NCBI GenBank assembly: GCA_947494975.1 | Contig: CANLXA010000004.1 | Span: forward strand, 341,001-405,000 | Reading direction: 5' to 3' | Length of the DNA stretch: 64,000 nt | Source: an uncultured Roseicyclus sp. | GTDB lineage: Bacteria > Pseudomonadota > Alphaproteobacteria > Rhodobacterales > Rhodobacteraceae | In this document: one piece after another, positions 3,199 through 14,820 of the stretch | Position numbering within the stretch: the first letter of the stretch is position 1 | Layout: each line of letters begins with the position of its first letter | The notes under the pieces: model-generated | Seen by the model: only the letters and a program-made list of their open reading frames with translations | Told to the model about the DNA's origin: nothing | Database searches by the model: none | Program-made: the position numbers and the translations under genes

Positions 3199-4719
3199 AT
3201 GAGCAATCCACCCAAACCTGTTGTCCTGTGCATCCTTGACGGCTGGGGCATTGGCACAACCGAGGCGGATAATGCGCCCTTGCAGGCGGACACGCCGGTA
3301 ATGGATCGGCTGATGCAGACCTGCCCCAACGCCACCCTTCTGACCCATGGCCGCGATGTGGGCCTGCCCGAGGGGCAGATGGGCAACTCCGAGGTCGGAC
3401 ACACCAATATCGGCGCGGGCCGGGTCGTGAAGATGGGTCTGGTGGAGATCAACGATGCGATTGCCGAGGGCTCCTTTGCCCAACGCCCGGCGCTGCTCGA
3501 TTTTATCCAGACGCTGAAGGAGAGCGGCGGCACCGCCCATCTGATGGGCCTGGTCAGCGATGGCGGCGTGCATTCGCAGCTGACGCATCTGGAGGCGGCG
3601 GTGAAGGTGATCGCCGAGGCGGGCGTGCCGGTGGCGATCCATGCGATCACCGACGGGCGCGACGTGGCGCCGAAATCCGCGGCGGATTTCGTGACGGGCC
3701 TGCTGGAGCGGCTGCCCGATGGCGTACGGGTGGCGACGGTGCTGGGCCGCTATTTCGCGATGGATCGCGACAATCGCTGGGATCGGGTGGAGCTTGCCTA
3801 TGACGCCATGGTGCGCGGACAGGGGGAGGCGGCAACGGATGCGGATGCCGCGATCGAGGCGGCCTACGAGAACGGCAAGACCGACGAATTCATCCCACCG
3901 TGCGTGATTGATGACTATACCGGGATGGCCGATGGCGACGGCCTCTACATGCTCAATTACCGCGCCGACCGCGCGCGCGAGATCCTTGCGGCGATGGGCG
4001 ATCCGGATTTCGACAAGTTCGACATCGACGGGCGGCCCGATTTTGCCGCCAAGTTGGGGATGGTGGATTATTCCAAGGCCCACGACGCCTACATGACTAC
4101 CGTCTTTCCCAAGCAGGAGATCGTGAACACGCTGGGTGAATGGGTCGCCAAGGCCGGGCTGCGGCAGTTTCGGCTGGCCGAGACCGAGAAATACCCCCAC
4201 GTCACGTTCTTCCTGAACGGCGGGGTCGAGGTGCCGGAGGAGGGGGAGGATCGCTACATGCCGAAATCCCCGGACGTCGCCACCTACGATCTCCAGCCCG
4301 AGATGAGCGCCGGTGAAGTGACGGAGCATCTCGTGAGGGCGATCCGGGACGGCTATGACCTGATCGTGGTGAACTACGCCAACCCCGACATGGTGGGCCA
4401 TACCGGGGATCTGGCCGCTGCCATGGCAGCTTGCGAGGCGGTGGATCAGGGCCTTGGCCAAGCCATCGACGCGTTGCATGACGTGAGTGGCGCGATGATC
4501 ATCTGCGCGGATCACGGCAATTGCGAAACCATGGTGGACCCGGAGACCGGCGGCCCCCACACGGCCCATACGACGAACCTGGTGCCGGTTATCCTGGTCG
4601 GTGGTGCGGAGGGCATGGGGCTGCGCAACGGGCGGCTGGCGGATCTGGCACCCAGCCTGTTGCAGCTGATGGCGCTGGACCAGCCCGAAGAGATGACCGG
4701 ACAGAGCCTTCTGACATGA
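3199..4719 (+). CDS. gpmI: 2,3-bisphosphoglycerate-independent phosphoglycerate mutase
   Basis: PVVLCILDGWG, GQMGNSEVGH, ETEKYPHVTFF, NPDMVGHTG and ADHGN motifs; start reassigned to MSNPPKP. Confidence 0.97.
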   Translation: MSNPPKPVVLCILDGWGIGTTEADNAPLQADTPVMDRLMQTCPNATLLTHGRDVGLPEGQMGNSEVGHTNIGAGRVVKMGLVEINDAIAEGSFAQRPALLDFIQTLKESGGTAHLMGLVSDGGVHSQLTHLEAAVKVIAEAGVPVAIHAITDGRDVAPKSAADFVTGLLERLPDGVRVATVLGRYFAMDRDNRWDRVELAYDAMVRGQGEAATDADAAIEAAYENGKTDEFIPPCVIDDYTGMADGDGLYMLNYRADRAREILAAMGDPDFDKFDIDGRPDFAAKLGMVDYSKAHDAYMTTVFPKQEIVNTLGEWVAKAGLRQFRLAETEKYPHVTFFLNGGVEVPEEGEDRYMPKSPDVATYDLQPEMSAGEVTEHLVRAIRDGYDLIVVNYANPDMVGHTGDLAAAMAACEAVDQGLGQAIDALHDVSGAMIICADHGNCETMVDPETGGPHTAHTTNLVPVILVGGAEGMGLRNGRLADLAPSLLQLMALDQPEEMTGQSLLT

Positions 4720-5834
4720 TCCGCGCGCTTGCCCTTCTGTTTGCCTTTGCGGCCCCGCTTTCGGCGCAGACCGATCCGGGTCAGACGGCGCGCGACGCGA
4801 TCCGGATGCTGGAGGATGCCGCCGCCGCCCTGACCGAGGCCGAGGGCGCGCGGGATCAGGTTGAGGCGCTGACCGCGACGGTGCAGGCCTATGAAAGCGG
4901 CCTCGACGCCCTGCGCGCCGGGATTCGCGACGCGGCGCTGCGCGAACGCACGATCCTGCTGGTGTTCGAGGCGGAGCGGGAGAGATTGGCGCAACTGCTA
5001 GGGGTTTTGCAGCGCATCGAAGAGGCGCCCGCGCCGGTAACATTGCTCCATCCCGAGGGGCCGGTGGGCACGGCGCGGCTGGGTATGATCGTTGCCGATG
5101 TCACGCCCGCCGTGGCCCGGCAGGCCACGGGCCTGCGCACACAGCTTGAAGAGCTTGCCGTTCTACGCGCCTTGCAAGACAGCGCGGTGGGGCAATTGGA
5201 GGCCGGATTGCAGGGCGTGCAACGGGCGCGCACCGAGTTGAGCCAGGCGATCGCCGACCGGGTGGACCTGCCGGAGCGGTTCTCGCATGATGCTGCCGCG
5301 ATGCAGCAGATCGTGCAAAGCGTCGACAATCTGGGCAGCTTTATCGAGGTTTTGGGAGACACACCCGCCGAGACCAGCGCGGCCCTGCCGGACTTCGAGG
5401 CGGCGCGCGGGACGCTGGCGGTTCCGGCCCGTGGAACGCTCCTGCGCCGCTTTGATGAGGCCGATGCAGCAGGCATCGCCCGGCCCGGTATACTCTACGC
5501 CGTGTCGTCCCGCGCCCTGCTGACCGCACCCTGGCCGGCATCCATCCGCTATGCCGGGCCGCTTCTGGATTACGGAAATGTCATTATCCTGGAGCCCGAT
5601 GCGGATTATCTACTTATTCTGGCGGGGGCAGGTGATCTGTTTGTCACCGCTGGTGAACTGGTTCCGGCGGACGCGCCACTGGGCCTGATGCCGGGGGAAA
5701 CCGACACCTTTGGCGCGGATTTGATCGTTTCCGATGCGCAAGGCAGTGGCGCCGGGCTGACGGAAACGCTTTATATAGAGTTGAGACAGGGCGGGAGCCC
5801 GGTGAACCCGCTGGACTGGTTCGCCGCGGATTAG
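4716..5834 (+). CDS. envC: Murein hydrolase activator EnvC family (coiled coil plus degenerate M23 domain)
   Basis: Signal peptide MIRALALLFAFAAPLSAQ, long coiled coil, YAGPLLDYGNVIIL and LYIELR...PVNP; ATGA overlap with gpmI. Confidence 0.85.
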   Translation: MIRALALLFAFAAPLSAQTDPGQTARDAIRMLEDAAAALTEAEGARDQVEALTATVQAYESGLDALRAGIRDAALRERTILLVFEAERERLAQLLGVLQRIEEAPAPVTLLHPEGPVGTARLGMIVADVTPAVARQATGLRTQLEELAVLRALQDSAVGQLEAGLQGVQRARTELSQAIADRVDLPERFSHDAAAMQQIVQSVDNLGSFIEVLGDTPAETSAALPDFEAARGTLAVPARGTLLRRFDEADAAGIARPGILYAVSSRALLTAPWPASIRYAGPLLDYGNVIILEPDADYLLILAGAGDLFVTAGELVPADAPLGLMPGETDTFGADLIVSDAQGSGAGLTETLYIELRQGGSPVNPLDWFAAD

Positions 5835-5868: not shown

Positions 5869-7194
5869 ATGAAAAAACTGATGTATGCGGCCGTGGGCGG
5901 CATTATCGGCGGAGCGGTGTTGAGCACCCAGGTGGCCGGGCCGTTGCTGGCGCAGGAACAGGTGCGCAATGCGTCAGTCTATGAACAGCTCGATCTGTTC
6001 GGAGACATCTTTGAGCGAATCCGCCAGAATTACGTGGAAGAAGTGGACGAGGCCGAGCTGATCGAAGCGGCGATCAACGGGATGCTGATCTCGCTCGATC
6101 CGCATTCAAGCTACATCTCGGCCAATGACTTCGAAGATATGCAGGTGCAGACCCGCGGAGAATTCGGCGGCCTGGGCATCGAAGTGACGCAGGAAGACGG
6201 CTTCGTGCGCGTGATCACGCCGATGGATGACACACCGGCCATGGACGCGGGCGTGGAGGCCGGAGACTTCATCACCCATGTTGACGGCGAAGCGCTTCTG
6301 GGGCTGACGTTGAGCGAGGCGGTGGATCTGATGCGTGGCCCCGTAGGCAGCGATATCCAGATCACCATCGTGCGCGAGGGTGCCGACGAGCCCTTCGATC
6401 TGGTCATCACCCGGGACCGCATCCAGCTGACGGCGGTGCGCGCGCGGCTGGAGGGCAATACGGCGATCCTGCGGGTCTCGACCTTCAGCGACCAGACCTT
6501 CCCGAACCTGCGCGACGGGTTGGAGGGGCTGATCGAGGAACTGGGCGGGCTGGAGAACCTCAACGGTGTCGTTCTGGACCTGCGCAACAATCCCGGTGGC
6601 CTGCTGACGCAGGCGATCCGCGTCTCAGACGCCTTCTTGGAGCAGGGCGAGATCGTTTCGACCCGGGGCCGCGAGCCGCAAGATGGCGAGCGCTACAACG
6701 CCACACCGGGTGACATGATCGAGGGTCGTCCGATGGTCGTGCTGATCAATGGCGGGTCGGCCTCGGCCTCCGAGATCGTGGCCGGTGCGTTGCAGGATCA
6801 TCGCCGCGCGGTGATCGTGGGCACCAATTCCTTCGGCAAGGGGTCTGTTCAATCGGTGATGCCGCTCGCCGGGTCCGGGGCAATGCGCCTGACGACGTCG
6901 CTCTATTACACGCCGTCGGGTCGGTCGATCCAGGCCTTGGGTGTTGCGCCTGATATCATCGTGGAACAGCGCGATCCCATCATCGAGGAAGAGGATGAAG
7001 ATGGCCTTCCGGCGCGGACCGAGGCCAGCTTGCGCGGAGCGATTGAAAACTCGTCTCTCACCGAGGATGAGTTGCGCCTGCTGGAAGAAGAGCGGGCCGC
7101 GGTGGAAGCCACGGCAGCTTTGCGCAACGAGGATTATCAGCTGGCCTATGCCATCGATATCCTGACCGGCCTGAACGCCCTCGGGCCGAACTGA
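5869..7194 (+). CDS. ctpA: Carboxyl-terminal processing protease, S41 family
   Basis: LDPHSSY, GEFGGLGIEV (PDZ), DLRNNPGG and GSASASEIVAGALQD motifs. Confidence 0.95.
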   Translation: MKKLMYAAVGGIIGGAVLSTQVAGPLLAQEQVRNASVYEQLDLFGDIFERIRQNYVEEVDEAELIEAAINGMLISLDPHSSYISANDFEDMQVQTRGEFGGLGIEVTQEDGFVRVITPMDDTPAMDAGVEAGDFITHVDGEALLGLTLSEAVDLMRGPVGSDIQITIVREGADEPFDLVITRDRIQLTAVRARLEGNTAILRVSTFSDQTFPNLRDGLEGLIEELGGLENLNGVVLDLRNNPGGLLTQAIRVSDAFLEQGEIVSTRGREPQDGERYNATPGDMIEGRPMVVLINGGSASASEIVAGALQDHRRAVIVGTNSFGKGSVQSVMPLAGSGAMRLTTSLYYTPSGRSIQALGVAPDIIVEQRDPIIEEEDEDGLPARTEASLRGAIENSSLTEDELRLLEEERAAVEATAALRNEDYQLAYAIDILTGLNALGPN

Positions 7195-7197
7195 GGC

Positions 7198-7683
7198 TTG
7201 GCTGAGTTGACGCCTGAGGAGGCTGCAAAGCTTCCCTATCGCCCTTGCGTGGGGGTCGTTCTGACCAATGCGCAAGGGCGTATCTTTGCGGGCCAACGGG
7301 CGGATATGGACACGCCCGCCTGGCAGATGCCCCAGGGCGGTGTGGACGAAGGTGAAGACCCGCTCGATGCCGCCTATCGCGAGTTGGAGGAGGAGACGGG
7401 GGTGGAGCGCACCGATGTGTCTTTTGTTCGCCAGACCGCCGATTGGCTGCACTACGATCTGCCGCTTGACGTGATCCCGCACCGCTGGAAAGGCCGGTTT
7501 CGCGGGCAGGCGCAGATGTGGGTGCAGTTCCGCCTCGACGTGCCGGACGACGTCATCAACCTGACCCATAAGGATGAGGAATTCAGCGATTGGCGGTGGA
7601 TGGAGGCGGCGGAGCTTCTGGATGCGATCGTGCCGTTCAAACGTGATATCTACGCCGCGGTCCTTGCGGAATTCGGGCTGTAG
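7198..7683 (+). CDS. rppH: RNA pyrophosphohydrolase (Nudix)
   Basis: LPYRPCVG, WQMPQGGVDEGE...AAYRELEEETG Nudix box, RGQAQMW; TTG start. Confidence 0.92.
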   Translation: MAELTPEEAAKLPYRPCVGVVLTNAQGRIFAGQRADMDTPAWQMPQGGVDEGEDPLDAAYRELEEETGVERTDVSFVRQTADWLHYDLPLDVIPHRWKGRFRGQAQMWVQFRLDVPDDVINLTHKDEEFSDWRWMEAAELLDAIVPFKRDIYAAVLAEFGL

Positions 7684-7774
7684 GCCCGTCGCGACCAATA
7701 GAGGCCTTCCCTACCCGACAAGCCGATACGTTTCTGATAAGGTCATGGAACCTGTCCCTTTTCGGAGACTGCCC

Positions 7775-8260
7775 ATGATCCGCCACACCGCCTTTGCCCT
7801 CGCCCTTATCGCCGCAGGCCCCGCCTCCGCGCTCAGTTGCCTTGCCCCAAGTGTGGAGCAGACCTATGGCTTTGCGGCTGACAGCCCCGAAAATTACGTG
7901 GTCGCCGTCGGGTCCTTGTACGCGACCGGGCCAAGCAACCCGTCGCAAGGCGCGGTGGCCCAAGGCGGCGATATCAACCAGATGGTCGGCTATACCCAGC
8001 CCGCGCGGTTTGACGGCATGGTCTTTACCAGCAGCGGATTCACCAGCCCCTTCAACCAGCAGATCCTGGCGGATGTCACCTGTATCGCGGCGTGGTGCGG
8101 AGCTTACACCGATCAGGCCAATGCCCTGTTTTTCTTCCGCCAAGACGCCGATGGCAGCTATGTGCTCGAGATCAACGCCTGCCCCGGCAACGTGTTTCCG
8201 AACCTGACGCAGGCGCAATTGCAGCAAGTCTCGCAATGCTATCACGGCGGTAATTGCTGA
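7775..8260 (+). CDS. Secreted Cys-rich hypothetical protein
   Basis: RBS GGAGA, signal peptide MIRHTAFALALIAAGPASA, six Cys in the mature part. Confidence 0.75.
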   Translation: MIRHTAFALALIAAGPASALSCLAPSVEQTYGFAADSPENYVVAVGSLYATGPSNPSQGAVAQGGDINQMVGYTQPARFDGMVFTSSGFTSPFNQQILADVTCIAAWCGAYTDQANALFFFRQDADGSYVLEINACPGNVFPNLTQAQLQQVSQCYHGGNC

Positions 8261-8290: not shown

Positions 8291-9469
8291 CTAGAGCACC
8301 TGCATCAGGCCCTCGCGCACCATCCGGCGCGCCAGAACCTTCTTGCCCGCATCGTCCAGATCTCCACCCATATCGCCGAGGCGGAAATCGGGTGTTGTGA
8401 GACAATATTCCATCGCCTCTTTCGCGTGGAGCGGCAGGACAATCTCGGCCCCCTGGCAGACAAGGCGCACCTGTTCGTCTTCCTCGATCTCGTAAATCGC
8501 ATAGATCAGATGCGGGCGGCCCCCAACGCGGCTGTCCATATCGAGCGTGTCGAGTGCGGCGATCTGGGCCATCTGACCCTCCACTCGCGGAGCGCGGGCG
8601 GTGAGAAAGTCTTCGCGGAAGCCGGTCAGAAGTTTGCTGATCGGCGCGCCGCCCAGAAGGCCGACAAGTTCCATGAAGGTATCATCATAGCCATCCAGAT
8701 CTGCGCCGTGATTGGCAAAACCGGGCGGTAACGCGCGGCGCATGGCCGGTTCCCGATGGGCCTTGGCGATGACGGCTTCGGCCAGCACATCCGCCCAAGT
8801 GCGGAACATCAGCCCGGTGGTGATATGGAGTGATGTCTCGTCGGTGGCGACGGCATCATGGGCCACACCACGGGGCAGGTAGAGCGTATCGCCGGGCTCC
8901 AGCATGAATCGCATGGTTTCTTCGCCCACATCCATGCCGCGCTCAAACCCCTGGTCGCTGAGCGGGAGTTCAATCGGCGTGGCGTAGACACGCCATTCCT
9001 TGGTGCCGGAGACCTGCAGGACGAGCACATCGTGACTGTCGTAATGGGGATTGAAGCCCTGATTGCCCGGCGGCGTCATGTAGATATTGGTCTGCACGCG
9101 GGCCGACATGGCAGCCTCCATCGCGCGGCAATAGCGCGCCAGTTGCGGCAGGCGCTCATGCAGGCCCGACAGGATCACCGTGGCGCCATCGGCGTGAAGC
9201 TGGTTGACCCGTACGGGATCGACCTGACCGGTTTCATAGGCAAAGTCGGCCGGCGTGATGTGTCCATCGGATTTGGTCACGTTGATCTCGGGATGGGCCA
9301 GGCCCATGGTCGAGACGACGCGGTCGATGTCCCCATAGCTCAGCAGATCGGCGAAATAGCCGGGCTGGCCGCGCTTGATGAGCATCGGTTTCTTCTCGAA
9401 ATACTCGGCAAGGAAGGTTTCGGGCGTCTCGGGCGCAATCGCCCAGTCAAAGCTGAAATCCTGGGTCAT
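8291..9469 (-). CDS. JmjC/Cupin_4 2OG-Fe(II) oxygenase (NO66/RoxA-like) with C-terminal winged-helix-like region
   Basis: FLAEYFEKKP N-terminus, NIYMTP...GFNPHYDSHDVLVLQVSGTKEW (HxD) and LEPGDTLYLPRGVAHDA (distal His). Confidence 0.88.
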   Translation of the reverse strand: MTQDFSFDWAIAPETPETFLAEYFEKKPMLIKRGQPGYFADLLSYGDIDRVVSTMGLAHPEINVTKSDGHITPADFAYETGQVDPVRVNQLHADGATVILSGLHERLPQLARYCRAMEAAMSARVQTNIYMTPPGNQGFNPHYDSHDVLVLQVSGTKEWRVYATPIELPLSDQGFERGMDVGEETMRFMLEPGDTLYLPRGVAHDAVATDETSLHITTGLMFRTWADVLAEAVIAKAHREPAMRRALPPGFANHGADLDGYDDTFMELVGLLGGAPISKLLTGFREDFLTARAPRVEGQMAQIAALDTLDMDSRVGGRPHLIYAIYEIEEDEQVRLVCQGAEIVLPLHAKEAMEYCLTTPDFRLGDMGGDLDDAGKKVLARRMVREGLMQVL

Positions 9470-9637
9470 CGGGGCTCTATCCGCTTGAAATCCGGTCCGT
9501 TATACACAGATCACGGCGGTGCGTATTGTTCAATCTCTCTCAACCAGTGAGGGATTCCACGCATTGACCGGTTGCATCGGATCGTTCAGGGTCCGCGCAA
9601 TCGTAAGCCAGGCATTACAGCAGAGGAGCTTCGTCTC

Positions 9638-9931
9638 ATGTCCAGCGATAAGAAGAAAAAGACACTGACCGATTCCGACATCATTACCGATCACCCCACG
9701 GGTCGCCGTGGTTTCATGGGCCTGATGGCCGCAGGCGGCGTGGCCGGTGCCACGGCAACGCTTGCCCCGCGCGCAGCCAGCGCGCAGAGCACCGATGCCG
9801 ATAACGGCGCCTGGACCGATGCAGGCGGCTGTGGCCGCGGCGGTGGTGGCGTTGCGACCGGTGCCACCGATGCCGACAGCGGCAACATCACCGATGCAGC
9901 AGGCTGGGGCCGCGGCGCGCCATATTGCTGA
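9638..9931 (+). CDS. 97-aa Tat-signal peptide protein with duplicated TDAD(N/S)G..TDA.G.GRG core
   Basis: RBS GAGGAG, RRGFMG twin-arginine motif, ASA/Q cleavage site; two 51-nt repeat units at 9791-9841 and 9866-9916. Confidence 0.85.
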   Translation: MSSDKKKKTLTDSDIITDHPTGRRGFMGLMAAGGVAGATATLAPRAASAQSTDADNGAWTDAGGCGRGGGGVATGATDADSGNITDAAGWGRGAPYC

Positions 9932-9990: not shown

Positions 9991-10929
9991 CTATTGGCGA
10001 AGGCGGGATTTCAGCGCGTCCGTGGCGTGGGCGAAAGCCCGTTGCGCGATCGGCGCTTTGGCTCGAAAGCGCAGGAGACCATGGATCAACCCCTCGGCCC
10101 GGTGATGCCACACATCCCGGCCAGCTGCGTTGAGAGCATTGGCCAGGGCTTCCCCCTCATCCACCAAAGGATCGAGCGCGGCCGTGAGGATGAGTGCCGG
10201 AGGGAGACCGTTGAGGTTCGCGCGGGCGGGTGCCGCATAGGCGTCAGGCGCCTGATCACCAAGGTATTCGGCCCAGAAGCGCCGCATGAGGGCCGCGCTC
10301 AGGAATGGCGCGTCGGCATGGTCGGTATAAGACGGAAAGCTGCAATCCGGATCCGTGCAGGGATACACGAGAAAGAGACCCGCGACTGGTGCCAACCGGT
10401 CGTCCCGCGCACGGAGTGCCGTGGCCAGTGCAAGGTTCCCCCCGGCGCTGTCCCCGCCCGCCCAGATATCACGCACCGGCCCAAGGGGTGTGCGGCCGCC
10501 GCGGAGGGCTGCCAAAGCGGCAAGGCATTCCTCCAGCGCGACAGGATAACGGTGTTCGGGGGAGAGAGCATAATCGATGCTGACCACCCGCAGGCCCGTT
10601 TCGGCCGCGAGGTCGGCGCAGACCTGGTCGTGGCCTTCGATGGAGCCAAGCATCCAGCCGCCACCATGCATATAGAGCATCGCGTCGGGCCCTGCGCCTT
10701 CCGGTAGATAAGCCCGCAGCCGCACCGGGCGTTTTGCGACCTCCATCACCCAATCCAGCGTTTCAAGCCCATTCGGGGGGATCATCGGGGTCTTTGCGGC
10801 CAACTCTTCCAACCGGTCGCGGAAGACGCCGACCGGCAGGCTTTCTTGCGGTTCGGGGAAAGCCGTATCGAGGCCGCGCACGATCTCCCAAAGCTCCGGA
10901 TGCAGACCGGGGTAGGGCGCGGCCGTCAA
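9991..10929 (-). CDS. Alpha/beta hydrolase (HSL-family esterase/lipase)
   Basis: HGGGW oxyanion motif, GDSAGG nucleophile elbow, DPL and HG catalytic residues; probable TTG start at 10929. Confidence 0.9.
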   Translation of the reverse strand: MTAAPYPGLHPELWEIVRGLDTAFPEPQESLPVGVFRDRLEELAAKTPMIPPNGLETLDWVMEVAKRPVRLRAYLPEGAGPDAMLYMHGGGWMLGSIEGHDQVCADLAAETGLRVVSIDYALSPEHRYPVALEECLAALAALRGGRTPLGPVRDIWAGGDSAGGNLALATALRARDDRLAPVAGLFLVYPCTDPDCSFPSYTDHADAPFLSAALMRRFWAEYLGDQAPDAYAAPARANLNGLPPALILTAALDPLVDEGEALANALNAAGRDVWHHRAEGLIHGLLRFRAKAPIAQRAFAHATDALKSRLRQ

Positions 10930-10933
10930 CCGT

Positions 10934-11635
10934 TCAGACCATCTTGATGACGTCTTTATCGATGGCGAGCATGTAGCCGCGCCGTGCGATGTTTTTGACC
11001 AGAAGTTCCGACACCAGTTGGTTGCCGAGCGTATCGCGCAGGCGCTTGATGCGGGTGGCACCGGCAGCTTCGTCCACATCGGATTCCAGCTTGCCGGAGA
11101 CCATCGCCTCTATCTGCGCACCGGTCAGGATGTCGTCGTCCAGCCGGGCCTCGGCCAGTACGCTGAGCGTTTCCATGGCGGCATCGGTGAGCTTGAATTC
11201 CAGGTTGTTGATCAGCACGACACGTTCCTCGCGCGACAGGATCAGCGACGACACCTGAATGCCCTGTCGCTCGATCTCTCCGATGCGGCGATTCAGGGTG
11301 ACGATCGTTACAAGGAACACCAGGCAAGCCACCAGAAGGGCGGTCGCAAAGATCATCAGAACGAAAATCACCGCGCGGTAGCTGGCCAGCACCTTGGCGA
11401 AGGTTGTGCCGGATTGTGCCAAGACCTCCAACATCCGGATGGCATCGGGATTGCGGACATCGTTGACCTCGAACACCTGCACCACAGCCTCGTTGAAGGC
11501 GTCCGCATCGGGAAGGTTCACGAAAAGCAGAACGGCGGTGGCCACCAGAACCGTGACCACCGCAAGAATACCAAGTTGAATAACGCGTGTTGACGCGATC
11601 CGTGTGTCAGAAACGGAGGAAGTATTGTCCGGCAT
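10934..11635 (-). CDS. Membrane-anchored transcriptional regulator (two N-terminal TM helices plus C-terminal OmpR-type winged helix)
   Basis: Two hydrophobic segments followed by KLTDAAMETLSVLAE...TRIKRLRDTLG...KNIARRGYML; RBS AAGGAG. Confidence 0.8.
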   Translation of the reverse strand: MPDNTSSVSDTRIASTRVIQLGILAVVTVLVATAVLLFVNLPDADAFNEAVVQVFEVNDVRNPDAIRMLEVLAQSGTTFAKVLASYRAVIFVLMIFATALLVACLVFLVTIVTLNRRIGEIERQGIQVSSLILSREERVVLINNLEFKLTDAAMETLSVLAEARLDDDILTGAQIEAMVSGKLESDVDEAAGATRIKRLRDTLGNQLVSELLVKNIARRGYMLAIDKDVIKMV

Positions 11636-11900
11636 CTGCTCTCCTTGAAGCGAGACCGGATTCGTCAAAGACCGAGCTCACCTGCACCAACGTCCAGCCT
11701 TGTGCCGCAAGACGACCGGCAACGAAGGAAGACGCGGCACCGACCGAACATGCGTTTTGAGGCACTTCGATCACACCGTAATGCAGACGCAGGGGGTTAT
11801 CCATCCTTGCGCGGTACTCCGCATAACATGCGGCATGGAGGGGGCCGGCCAGCACGCTGAGCGCGAGGGCGACAAGGAGAGGTTTCAAGAATCGTTTCAT
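11607..11900 (-). CDS. Small secreted hypothetical protein
   Basis: Signal peptide MKRFLKPLLVALALSVLAGPLHA; mature part CYAEYRARMDNPLRLHYG with two Cys; overlaps the regulator start. Confidence 0.8.
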   Translation of the reverse strand: MKRFLKPLLVALALSVLAGPLHAACYAEYRARMDNPLRLHYGVIEVPQNACSVGAASSFVAGRLAAQGWTLVQVSSVFDESGLASRRADAGQYFLRF

Positions 11901-11998
11901 CAATTTGCTCGTTTCATTGCCAGAAGGGGGCAGCTTCACGAGGGACATTGGCTGATTTCCGCTCTGTCATTCAATTACGGGGGGGCTTTCACAGGCCT

Positions 11999-12952: not shown

Positions 12953-12989
12953 GGCGGCGCGATCTTCGGATTGCGCCGCCTTTTTCTTT
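12953..12989 (+). terminator. Rho-independent terminator
   Basis: ggcggcgc-gatcttcggatt-gcgccgcc followed by tttttcttt. Confidence 0.8.
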
Positions 12990-13005
12990 GCCCCATTGCA
13001 AGGGT

Positions 13006-13605
13006 ATGGAACCGGATTATCGGATGGAAGCCGCGCTTGATGGCCGGGTTGCCGGGGTGGACGAGGTGGGCCGTGGTCCCTGGGCCGGTCCTGTCACAGC
13101 CTGCGCCGTGGTACTGGACCCCGCGCGCGTGCCAAGCGGCCTGAACGATTCCAAGAAGCTGACGGCGGCGCGGCGCGATGCGCTCGCGGACCGGATCCTG
13201 GAGGTCGCGGACGTGTCGCTGGGATGGGCTTCTGTCGAGGAGATCGACGCCATGAACATCCGGCAGGCGACATTTCTGGCCATGACCCGGGCGCTGGCCG
13301 GTCTTGCCCATGCCCCGACCCACGCCTTGATCGACGGCAACGCCATTCCACCCGGCCTTACGTGCCCGGCCACCGGCGTGGTGAAGGGCGATGGCCGCTC
13401 CGTTTCCATCGCGGCGGCGTCAATTGTGGCGAAAGTACGGCGGGATGCCCTGATGAAAGACCTTGCCGTGATGCATCCCGGTTACGGTTGGGAGACGAAT
13501 ATGGGCTACGGCACCACCAAACACGCGGCCGGGCTACACGATCTAGGGGTCACCCAACATCATCGGCGCAGCTTTGCCCCTATCCACAAGATATTGTGTG
13601 GATAA
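13006..13605 (+). CDS. rnhB: Ribonuclease HII
   Basis: GVDEVGRGPWAGPV, LNDSKKL, LIDGN and KGDGRSVSIAAASIVAKV motifs. Confidence 0.96.
   Translation: MEPDYRMEAALDGRVAGVDEVGRGPWAGPVTACAVVLDPARVPSGLNDSKKLTAARRDALADRILEVADVSLGWASVEEIDAMNIRQATFLAMTRALAGLAHAPTHALIDGNAIPPGLTCPATGVVKGDGRSVSIAAASIVAKVRRDALMKDLAVMHPGYGWETNMGYGTTKHAAGLHDLGVTQHHRRSFAPIHKILCG

Positions 13606-13680: not shown

Positions 13681-14820
<1,140 letters not shown>

Follow-up and report, generated by a model that had tools for sequence, protein, structure and literature searches.

Hydroxylases of the JmjC ribosomal-oxygenase (ROX) type are known from humans and from bacteria. The human enzymes NO66 (RIOX1) and MINA53 (RIOX2) are histidyl C3-hydroxylases of the ribosomal proteins Rpl8 and Rpl27a, and RoxA/YcfD is a bacterial C3-hydroxylase of Arg81 in the ribosomal protein uL16. 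To our knowledge, a substrate has been proven for no bacterial ROX other than RoxA/YcfD (uL16). The tailoring of RiPPs (peptides made by ribosomes and modified after translation) by enzymes dependent on Fe(II) and 2-oxoglutarate (Fe/2OG enzymes) is already known: the PF08007-type hydroxylases PhaI and BipG act on ornithine in phaeornamide (PMC8784127) and biphenomycin (PMC12707348), respectively, and the JmjC hydroxylase CzlI acts on phenylalanine in curacozole (PMC11575548). Here we describe a two-gene locus of an uncultured Roseicyclus sp., at positions 8291-9931 of a 64,000-nucleotide stretch of contig CANLXA010000004.1 (positions 341,001-405,000; hereafter the window), in which the gene of a JmjC oxygenase is divergently paired with the gene of a small repeat protein that carries a putative twin-arginine translocation (Tat) signal and that we call the precursor. 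We regard it as moderately probable, on comparative grounds, that the two form an enzyme-substrate pair, the precursor being hydroxylated in the cytoplasm under the guidance of its leader and then exported through the Tat pathway.

The evidence that carries this reading is the linkage of the two genes. A preliminary description of the locus, made from the window sequence, had proposed that enzyme and peptide form a functional module and that the co-occurrence of the peptide with this JmjC clade be scored across genomes. In a scan of one genome per species, we found 38 loci encoding the precursor, from Roseicyclus, Roseibacterium, Nioella, Rhodophyticola, Gymnodinialimonas, Cochlodiniinecator, Ahrensia, Cohaesibacteraceae, metagenome-assembled genomes (MAGs) of Hyphomicrobiales, and two Rhodospirillales MAGs, with one to three tandem precursor paralogues per locus. 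A JmjC homologue (52-85% identity) lies immediately upstream in divergent orientation in 35 of these 38 loci; among the three loci without an adjacent enzyme, one ends at a contig edge. The reverse look-up, from enzyme to peptide, covered three further enzyme homologues in genomes outside the 38-locus list (Roseibacterium elongatum, 'Maritalea mobilis', and Fontisubflavum oceani), and all three face a divergent precursor homologue of 96-102 amino acids (aa).

A scan of metagenomes with the enzyme alignment yielded 80 loci whose enzyme homologues show 35-96% identity to that of the window. We searched the open reading frames (ORFs) of all six frames with a hidden Markov model of the precursor and with the leader pattern, and counted as assessable the loci with at least 600 nucleotides (nt) upstream of the enzyme (n = 69). 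An ORF matching the precursor is found no more than 1.5 kb from the enzyme in 59 of the 69 assessable loci, at enzyme identities down to 37%, and three extra loci (L065, L087, and L105) have variant precursors that were recognized by eye. At enzyme identities of at least 50%, 18 out of 21 assessable loci have the peptide, all 18 divergent and none co-directional. Between 43% and 50% identity the peptide accompanies 10 out of 13 enzymes (six divergent, four co-directional), and between 30% and 43% it accompanies 31 out of 35 (four divergent, 27 co-directional). Wherever the genes are co-directional, the precursor gene precedes the enzyme gene.

The Rhodobacteraceae loci have the pair beside a syntenic block that comprises a membrane winged-helix protein, a small secreted protein, RNase HII (rnhB), and a CcrM-type methylase (ccrM). 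The pair is intact in loci of Hyphomicrobiales, Cohaesibacteraceae, and Cochlodiniinecator where all other flanking genes differ. All-against-all clustering of the ORFs of all loci gave, apart from the Rhodobacteraceae synteny, no third gene family that accompanies the two, so the unit consists of two genes. The pairing of enzyme and precursor is not due to chance, and the module of the preliminary description has strong comparative support (35 of 38, three of three, and 59 of 69 loci) that extends to varied flanks, to either orientation, and to enzymes of as little as 37% identity; the co-occurrence it had asked about is a strong linkage.

The second line of evidence comes from the precursor family itself. 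The motif LTDSDI, which had been suggested as a recognition leader, belongs to the most conserved stretch of the peptide family, while the cores diverge, and the sequence comparison supports such a role. The family-wide consensus is K-T-L-[TS]-D-x-[DQE]-I-x-T-x-R: among 112 distinct peptides, the L is present in 106, the D in 100, the I in 106, and the T in 92. A few residues past the motif, an RRxFL sequence and a hydrophobic stretch follow family-wide. The peptides encoded beside enzymes of 37-46% identity have unrelated cores but retain the leader motif. Two properties of RiPP systems are thus seen here: a conserved leader joined to a variable core (leader logo, n = 112, against at least four unrelated core types), and a precursor gene that is adjacent to and co-inherited with a modifying enzyme (35/38, 3/3, and 59/69). 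A constant leader, divergent repeated cores, and a single co-inherited enzyme together make the pattern that one would expect of a leader-guided peptide-modification system.

The core type of the window, TDADNGxxTDxxGxGRG, occurs in two to three copies and with two Cys. A second pattern, [ILV]TD[SA]DxGxxADPxGxGRG (e.g., TDSDSGxxADPAGNGRG), is repeated from five to at least 13 times in proteins of up to 407 aa. The Lys-rich type [ST]DPD[SK]KKK (SDPDSKKK), which has no GRG and almost no Gly or Arg, is found in soil-type relatives whose enzymes show 40-43% identity. Further types are CSDSDPYDPAGRGRHC, DKDKGDAEDD-like repeats, and others. The only features common to all cores are an Asp content of 10-37% and [ST]DxD-like motifs; GRG and Asn, taken earlier for general features of the core, are not universal.

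Nor does the family consist of short peptides only, as first described, since relatives grow to ~400 aa with repeats numbering 13 or more, and lipoprotein boxes are seen in some. Large relatives of 280-407 aa carry 9-13 or more repeats, compared with the predicted mature 48 aa of the window, which suggests that the wider family shades from peptides into modified proteins. Multi-repeat relatives are encoded at L119 (449-1669), L088 (3-866), L078 (1-564), L120 (1910-2833), and L060/L061. In several relatives a lipoprotein box (LAGC or TGC) replaces AxA after the Tat motif, and the family therefore includes both large repeat proteins and probable Tat-dependent lipoproteins.

Two further groups of relatives differ in arrangement. 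In the Lys-rich relatives (L070, L074, L075, L081, L082, L092, L097, and others), the precursor gene lies just upstream of the JmjC gene on the same strand, and the precursor has a conserved C-terminus DPDG[AS]R[YLF], unlike the APYC of the marine clade. In loci of Hyphomicrobiales and Cohaesibacteraceae (L006, L010, L012, L013, L019, L025, and L030; at ~9480-9870 in each), a second paralogue of 110-115 aa is encoded in the space that separates the enzyme gene from that of the canonical peptide. Its repeats number three, not two, and the middle one is degenerate: it reads TDNDLGTGSDPAGGGRHG, for instance, or has GWGYSG where GRG would stand (L025).

The enzyme of the window is, as judged by sequence and by structural model, a complete ROX-fold protein that is nearer to NO66/MINA53 than to RoxA/YcfD. 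The JmjC oxygenase with an intact HxD...H triad that had been read from the sequence is confirmed: the 392-aa protein matches PF08007 (JmjC_2, formerly Cupin_4; E = 1.9e-30, 105.5 bits against a Pfam gathering cut-off of 22), and the triad consists of H142 and D144, from PHYDSH, and H204, from RGVAHD. In the phmmer alignment, H142, D144, K157, and H204 correspond to H340, D342, K355, and H405 of NO66, and all four are invariant in an alignment of 45 oxygenase sequences. In NO66, Tyr328 and Ser421 hold the substrate histidine (PMC9994133). The alignments place Y130 of the oxygenase at the first of these positions and an invariant glycine, G219, at the second; the replacement of Ser421 by G219 implies a substrate pocket unlike that of the histidine hydroxylases.

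The AlphaFold2 (AF2) model of the oxygenase has a mean predicted local distance difference test (pLDDT) score of 90.9. Its best Foldseek match is NO66, aligned at full length over ~440 columns with a template modelling (TM) score of 0.71 and 25% identity, and the next is MINA53; the YcfD proteins of E. coli and Rhodothermus rank 26 or lower, also with full-length alignment. Model and Foldseek alignments together show the three-domain ROX architecture of JmjC, helical dimerisation, and C-terminal winged-helix domains. By sequence the distance is similar in direction: phmmer gives E = 1e-30 for NO66 compared with 5e-8 to 2e-7 for YcfD, no more than 68 columns of the core could be aligned with E. 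coli RoxA by hhalign, and an NCBIfam scan of the oxygenase gave no equivalog match. We therefore rejected the identification of the enzyme as an orthologue of RoxA/YcfD, the uL16 Arg81 hydroxylase: NO66 is far closer by phmmer and Foldseek, NCBIfam offers no match, and hhalign aligns only the core strands. The preliminary description had named clustering with RoxA/YcfD, without linkage to the peptide, as the outcome that would speak against it; the search values (E ~1e-7 for YcfD against 1e-30 for NO66) and the strong linkage point the other way. A mapping of the Arg-binding residues of YcfD (D118, M120, Y137, and S208; PMC5862942) onto the oxygenase was dropped, as only 68 columns align and the published numbering is unlike the E. 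coli positions.

The C-terminal domain of the oxygenase consists of strands followed by helices in the secondary structure of the AF2 model. Its motif GDLDD..GK..L.RR...EGL is retained in oxygenase homologues of less than 50% identity, and phmmer finds no sequence similarity to NO66 past residue 294. Winged helices fused to PF08007 domains look like RiPP recognition elements (RREs), and bacterial homologues occur in RiPP-like contexts, according to a 2025 survey (PMC12710340). From sequence and model, we infer that the winged helix is a candidate leader-binding module.

The precursor of the window can be read in three segments: MSSDKKKKTLTDSDIITDHPTG, then RRGFMGLMAAGGVAGATATLAPRAASA, after which cleavage is predicted, and then QSTDADNGAWTDAGGCGRGGGGVATGATDADSGNITDAAGWGRGAPYC. 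The frame of 97 aa on the plus strand and its APYC end stand as first reported; its start moves by one nucleotide, from 9639 to 9638. The two 17-aa core repeats also stand, at a period of 75 nt, and are identical at 12 out of 17 residues and 41 out of 51 bases. A shorter, third repeat-like motif, TDSDIITD (TDxD...ITD), is found in the N-terminal region at residues 11-18. We found 35 precursor homologues (92-110 aa) by sequence search and 216 by profile search, and an exhaustive search of 1.84 billion cluster representatives with the precursor profile gave 342 clusters (50% identity) at E <= 0.001. Invariant in the 35-sequence alignment are L10, D12, I15, T17, R23, and R24 of the leader and signal part (F26 nearly so); D53, D55, G57, D61, R67, and G68 of the first repeat (C65 nearly so); and D78, D80, G82, D86, G89, G91, R92, G93, and C97 of the second repeat and the C-terminal end. 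The positions of these features are collected in Table 1.

Table 1. Features of the oxygenase-precursor locus, in window coordinates
Feature	Position	Strand	Description or basis
JmjC oxygenase gene, 392 aa	8291..9469	-	ORF; Fe(II)/2-oxoglutarate, ROX fold (model and sequence); no signal peptide
C-terminal winged-helix-like domain, residues ~310-392	8294..8542	-	beta-beta-beta-beta-alpha-alpha-beta in AF2 model; alignment to three-domain ROX structures
JmjC catalytic domain, residues 108-227	8789..9148	-	Pfam envelope
Iron triad codon, H204	8858-8860	-	
2OG-binding K157 codon	8999-9001	-	
Iron triad codon, D144	9038-9040	-	
Iron triad codon, H142	9044-9046	-	
Divergent intergenic region, 168 bp	9470..9637	.	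TTGAC at 9564-9568 (-35-like for precursor gene); GAGGAG ribosome-binding site at 9623-9628
Precursor gene, 97 aa	9638..9931	+	ORF, ATG at 9638; homologues; leader, predicted Tat signal, 48-aa Gly/Asp-rich core
Leader motif K8-T-L-T-D-S-D-I-I-T17	9659..9688	+	Conserved in family
Twin-arginine signal R23-R24-G-F-M	9704..9784	+	Gly/Ala-rich h-region, R45 in c-region, A47-S-A49 before predicted cleavage ahead of Q50
Core repeat 1, TDADNGAWTDAGGCGRG, T52-G68	9791..9841	+	With Cys65 (9830-9832)
Core repeat 2, TDADSGNITDAAGWGRG, T77-G93	9866..9916	+	Followed by APYC with invariant Cys97 (9926-9928)

The small ORF is a genuine conserved gene, and goes beyond a chance reading frame, as argued by its homologues, by conserved upstream elements, and by the many silent codon changes relative to its relatives: the comparison with L001, for example, gives 37 codons that differ only synonymously and 20 that change the amino acid. 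The intergenic region of 168 bp, another element of the preliminary description that was recovered, is nearly constant in length (~160-180 nt) across 35 aligned intergenic regions, in all of which TTGAC is invariant and GGAG is kept. A scan of the region with consensus promoter and terminator models returned nothing, including no full sigma-70 match; the aligned regions hold no conserved palindrome suggestive of a metal regulator, and an Rfam scan of the window gave zero matches.

With the 35-sequence alignment, AF2 predicts the precursor to be disordered (mean pLDDT 49). The features expected of a Tat signal are present in it, namely GRRGFMG...ASA/Q, R45 in the c-region, and the RRxFL that recurs in its family. 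Database names of its homologues are either 'hypothetical' or, for several at NCBI, 'twin-arginine translocation signal domain-containing protein', and neither Pfam nor NCBIfam scans assigned the precursor or five distant relatives to a meaningful family. We rejected an identification of the repeats as EF-hand/DxDxDG or thrombospondin (TSP) type-3 calcium loops: DxDNG/DxDSG falls short of DxDxDG by one residue, and Pfam gives no match. A 406-aa multi-repeat relative likewise has no Pfam match at E <= 1.

We propose the following mechanism. A cytoplasmic ROX-type oxygenase would take the neighbouring small protein as its dedicated substrate, docking on a leader that forms part of the n-region within that substrate's Tat signal peptide; recognition would probably be through the C-terminal winged-helix domain. 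The oxygenase would hydroxylate the Asp-rich repeats, most likely at C3 of Asp in [ST]DxD, and the modified, disordered product would be exported post-translationally by Tat. Signal peptidase I would then cut after ASA, removing leader and signal together and leaving a mature peptide of 48 residues that starts at Q50; the lipoprotein pathway would take over this last processing step in some relatives. Cys65 and Cys97 would be available for a periplasmic disulfide. The mature peptide would act outside the cytoplasm, where it plausibly binds hard cations (Ca2+, Fe3+), a role suggested by analogy. Because export and leader removal would fall to Tat and signal peptidase, the proposal requires no dedicated protease or transporter, and it accounts for the absence of such genes from the pair, for an unusually conserved signal n-region, and for the predicted use of a post-translational export route.

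Several observations weigh against such an enzyme-substrate pair or against parts of it. In two Rhodospirillales MAGs (L015 and L035, at ~10001-10290), a precursor with intact leader, repeats, and APYC has no adjoining JmjC gene. Conversely, six assessable metagenome loci (L057, L058, L067, L080, L086, and L123) encode the enzyme with no recognizable precursor within 3 kb; among them, the enzymes of L057 and L058 are 54% identical to that of the window. Part of the Rhodobacteraceae adjacency could reflect synteny beside rnhB and ccrM. The LTD motif is missing in a few distant relatives (P0269, MKKGKLSRRSFL; L120), and the RR signal is missing in the relative at L105. The TAT_signal models TIGR01409 and PF10518 do not match the window precursor at E <= 0.01, and relatives give sub-threshold matches only (TIGR01409, E = 0.27; TIGR02811, E = 0.0013). 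A sequence-word search matched DNA and metagenome runs only and no RNA-seq run. Finally, Asp is outside the targets of the characterized ROX/PF08007 enzymes (Arg, His, and Orn), and within the clade of the window, Arg of the GRG motifs is no less invariant than Asp.

The enzymes without a precursor, together with the resemblance to ribosomal hydroxylases, lead to one alternative: the oxygenase might be a housekeeping hydroxylase of a ribosomal protein, like RoxA/YcfD or NO66, and the secreted protein a mere conserved neighbour. The full three-domain ROX fold fits this, as do the top structure and sequence matches, which are ribosomal hydroxylases; many homologues are labelled 'ribosomal protein L16 Arg81 hydroxylase' by the Joint Genome Institute (JGI), and divergent transcription means that the window clade has no operon. 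However, the adjacency is kept where the flanks have turned over completely, where the orientation has changed, and where the enzymes have diverged to 37% identity. The similarity to YcfD is weak (E ~1e-7; 68 hhalign columns) with no NCBIfam equivalog, the distribution over marine Alphaproteobacteria genomes and unassigned metagenome contigs is patchy, unlike that of a housekeeping ribosome modifier, and the Ser421 that binds His216 in NO66 is Gly here. We consider a housekeeping role very unlikely.

A second alternative keeps the pair and changes the target. The invariant GRG arginine (R67 and R92) might be converted to C3-hydroxyarginine, the product of RoxA/YcfD and JMJD5, with Lys as the target in the K-rich soil relatives and Asp serving function or recognition only. 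The marine clade shows no variation at R67/G68 or at G91/R92/G93; all characterized ROX/PF08007 hydroxylases have as their targets basic or imidazole side chains (Arg, His, or Orn) within Gly-rich loops (Rpl27a GRGNAGGLHHH, Rpl8 FGGGNHQH, YcfD, JMJD5, PhaI, and BipG); and the change from Ser421 to Gly219 could widen the pocket. Against this, the soil-type cores (enzymes of 40-43% identity) have no GRG and nearly no Gly or Arg, so that no family-wide target would exist, and the three-repeat paralogue of L025 has GWGYSG for GRG in its middle repeat. The segment before HxD resembles that of NO66 (PPGNQGF compared with PPNSQGF), and no acidic residue is evident at the place of YcfD Asp118, although this mapping is weak and the alignment there is not confident. 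Taken together, an arginine target appears unlikely to us. Since GRG and Asn are not universal and Asp and [ST]DxD are common to all cores, Asp is the most economical target, and we take it, on these sequences, to be the most likely one; the claim for Asp is weaker than that for the enzyme-substrate pairing.

The conservation of the leader allows a third possibility, in which the leader itself (e.g., D12) is hydroxylated and forms a gate, dependent on O2, Fe, and 2OG, on the Tat export of an otherwise unmodified Asp-rich protein. The leader is the sole segment conserved family-wide, it has the motif [ST]Dx[DE] in common with the cores, and it lies directly within the Tat n-region. However, conserved N-terminal motifs are binding sites and not substrates in the RiPP and Tat-chaperone precedents, the Asp-rich repeats of every core type suggest selection on core chemistry, and the relatives L120 and P0269 keep repeats and enzyme without the LTD motif. 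Such a gate seems to us highly improbable, and we return to leader-guided hydroxylation of the core, followed by Tat export, as the reading we prefer.

The remaining genes around the pair were judged to lie outside it. An alpha/beta-hydrolase ORF of 362 aa (9991-11079, minus strand; Abhydrolase_3, hormone-sensitive-lipase type) adjoins the pair in the closest relatives only, and shares 146 nt with the 3' end of the neighbouring gene. Its homologues align from residue ~50 on, and residues 3-49 also match in two loci without the esterase (L014 and L027), so the first ~49 residues are probably a mis-called start that reads through the coding region of the neighbour. That neighbour (10934-11668, minus strand) encodes 244 aa with hydrophobic segments and a weak C-terminal match to Trans_reg_C (OmpR-type winged helix; E = 0.001), and is paired with a 113-aa ORF with a signal-like N-terminus and two Cys (11607-11948, minus strand). 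The two are 55-90% identical across Rhodobacteraceae loci, always between the peptide gene and the genes of RNase HII and the CcrM-type methylase; because they are absent beside the JmjC-peptide pair in Hyphomicrobiales, we judged them to be outside the module.

Upstream of the JmjC gene, a 228-aa ORF (7574-8260, plus strand) overlaps a NUDIX hydrolase gene (7198-7683, plus strand) and has no Pfam match. Its homologues, which are found in close relatives only and are duplicated in L008 and L009, align from residue ~65-88, at the signal-like MIRHTAFALALIAAGPASALSC; judging by these alignments, the product is probably a secreted protein of ~160 aa that contains Cys, or else a lipoprotein. The esterase, this upstream ORF, and the downstream pair of membrane winged-helix and secreted proteins were each rejected as parts of the system, being absent beside the pair outside Rhodobacteraceae. 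Farther out on the plus strand are ordinary housekeeping genes for RNase HII (12988-13605), a CcrM-like N6-adenine DNA methylase with a RAMA domain (13714-14820), and an S41 C-terminal processing peptidase with a PDZ domain (5869-7194); the ORF at 4521-5834 has no Pfam match. In the Rhodospirillales locus L035, the neighbour of the precursor is a 553-aa ORF on the same strand. Near-identical words of 8291-9931 are found in macroalgae, algae, sediment, and aquatic metagenome runs, which suggests an alga-associated marine Rhodobacteraceae as the source.

A broader proposal can be made only tentatively, and we hold it more doubtful than not: that these loci represent a new RiPP-like class, defined by a ROX-type JmjC oxygenase as its sole maturase. 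The leader would lie within the Tat n-region, general Tat export and signal peptidase would stand in for a dedicated protease and transporter, and the class would yield poly-(beta-hydroxyaspartate) peptides and proteins, secreted or lipid-anchored, as ribosomal equivalents of the non-ribosomal beta-hydroxyaspartate metallophores, in marine Alphaproteobacteria and in the organisms behind the distant metagenome contigs. Whatever the class, an enzyme clade nearer to NO66/MINA53 than to RoxA here brings a genetically encoded candidate substrate. If the proposed mechanism is true, a JmjC enzyme can serve as the sole maturase of a ribosomal peptide; a RiPP leader can sit inside a Tat signal peptide, which would explain the missing dedicated protease and transporter; and bacteria secrete hydroxylated Asp-rich repeat peptides and lipoproteins, whose likely cation binding would be relevant to the metal and calcium biology of the relatives of the window organism. 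The conserved leader motif is also a simple handle for genome mining in a peptide family without a Pfam or NCBIfam model.

The minimal cassette, with a JmjC protein as its only enzyme and Tat-exported repeat substrates as proposed here, is undescribed in Pfam, NCBIfam, and the searchable literature, and we found no publication in the searchable literature that names both JmjC and twin-arginine. Its relation to known systems can nevertheless be traced feature by feature. NO66 and MINA53 have in common with the window oxygenase the JmjC/dimerisation/winged-helix architecture, the triad, the 2OG lysine, and the active-site tyrosine; they differ in that their substrates are ribosomal, whereas the candidate here is a neighbouring exported peptide without a conserved His, in a bacterial host, with Gly219 for Ser421. 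RoxA/YcfD shares the Pfam family (PF08007) and the three-domain fold with the window oxygenase, but its sequence is distant, and in E. coli, where pepT and phoQ flank roxA, no precursor gene is annotated next to it. As to the export signal, the cytoplasmic chaperones TorD, DmsD, and NapD, which serve the maturation of Tat redox enzymes, bind their cognate Tat signal peptides, and export follows maturation. They differ from the oxygenase, for which binding of the signal n-region is proposed on sequence grounds, in making no covalent modification and in having an unrelated fold.

PhaI, BipG, and CzlI, which we liken to the window oxygenase by description and not by sequence, are JmjC-type Fe/2OG enzymes encoded beside a ribosomal precursor and hydroxylate side chains. 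They are, however, accessory enzymes in multi-enzyme clusters with arginases, lanthionine synthetases, oxidative enzymes that depend on multinuclear non-heme iron (MNIOs), radical S-adenosylmethionine (SAM) enzymes, proteases, and transporters, whereas the module of the window has the JmjC protein as its sole enzyme, a precursor with a Tat signal, and tandem Asp-rich cores. The chemistry proposed here, Asp to beta-hydroxy-Asp on a ribosomal peptide, is that of the Fe/2OG Asp beta-hydroxylases CinX/DurX, YhhC, CanE, and SmaO, which act on RiPPs (PMC12186529), and the SmaO-type precursors have Asp in Gly-rich GD/DG contexts like the window cores (PMC12186529). The terms JmjC and cupin are absent from that source, and none of these enzymes is known to be paired with a Tat-exported precursor.

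Genuine export signals on RiPP precursors are known from the bufferins, which are periplasmic copper-binding RiPPs modified by MNIOs and bearing Sec signal peptides (PMC11626156), and from peptides of the lipoprotein pathway (PMC13056109). No MNIO (DUF692) or partner gene stands beside the pair in the window, which is thus not of the bufferin type. The likeness to the bufferins lies in the genuine export signal on the precursor, in the lack of a dedicated protease or transporter, and in a product thought to be a periplasmic metal binder; the difference lies in the machinery, since the bufferins depend on an MNIO/DUF692 enzyme with a partner protein, on the conversion of Cys to thiooxazole, and on the Sec route, in place of the JmjC oxygenase and the putative Tat route of the system described here.

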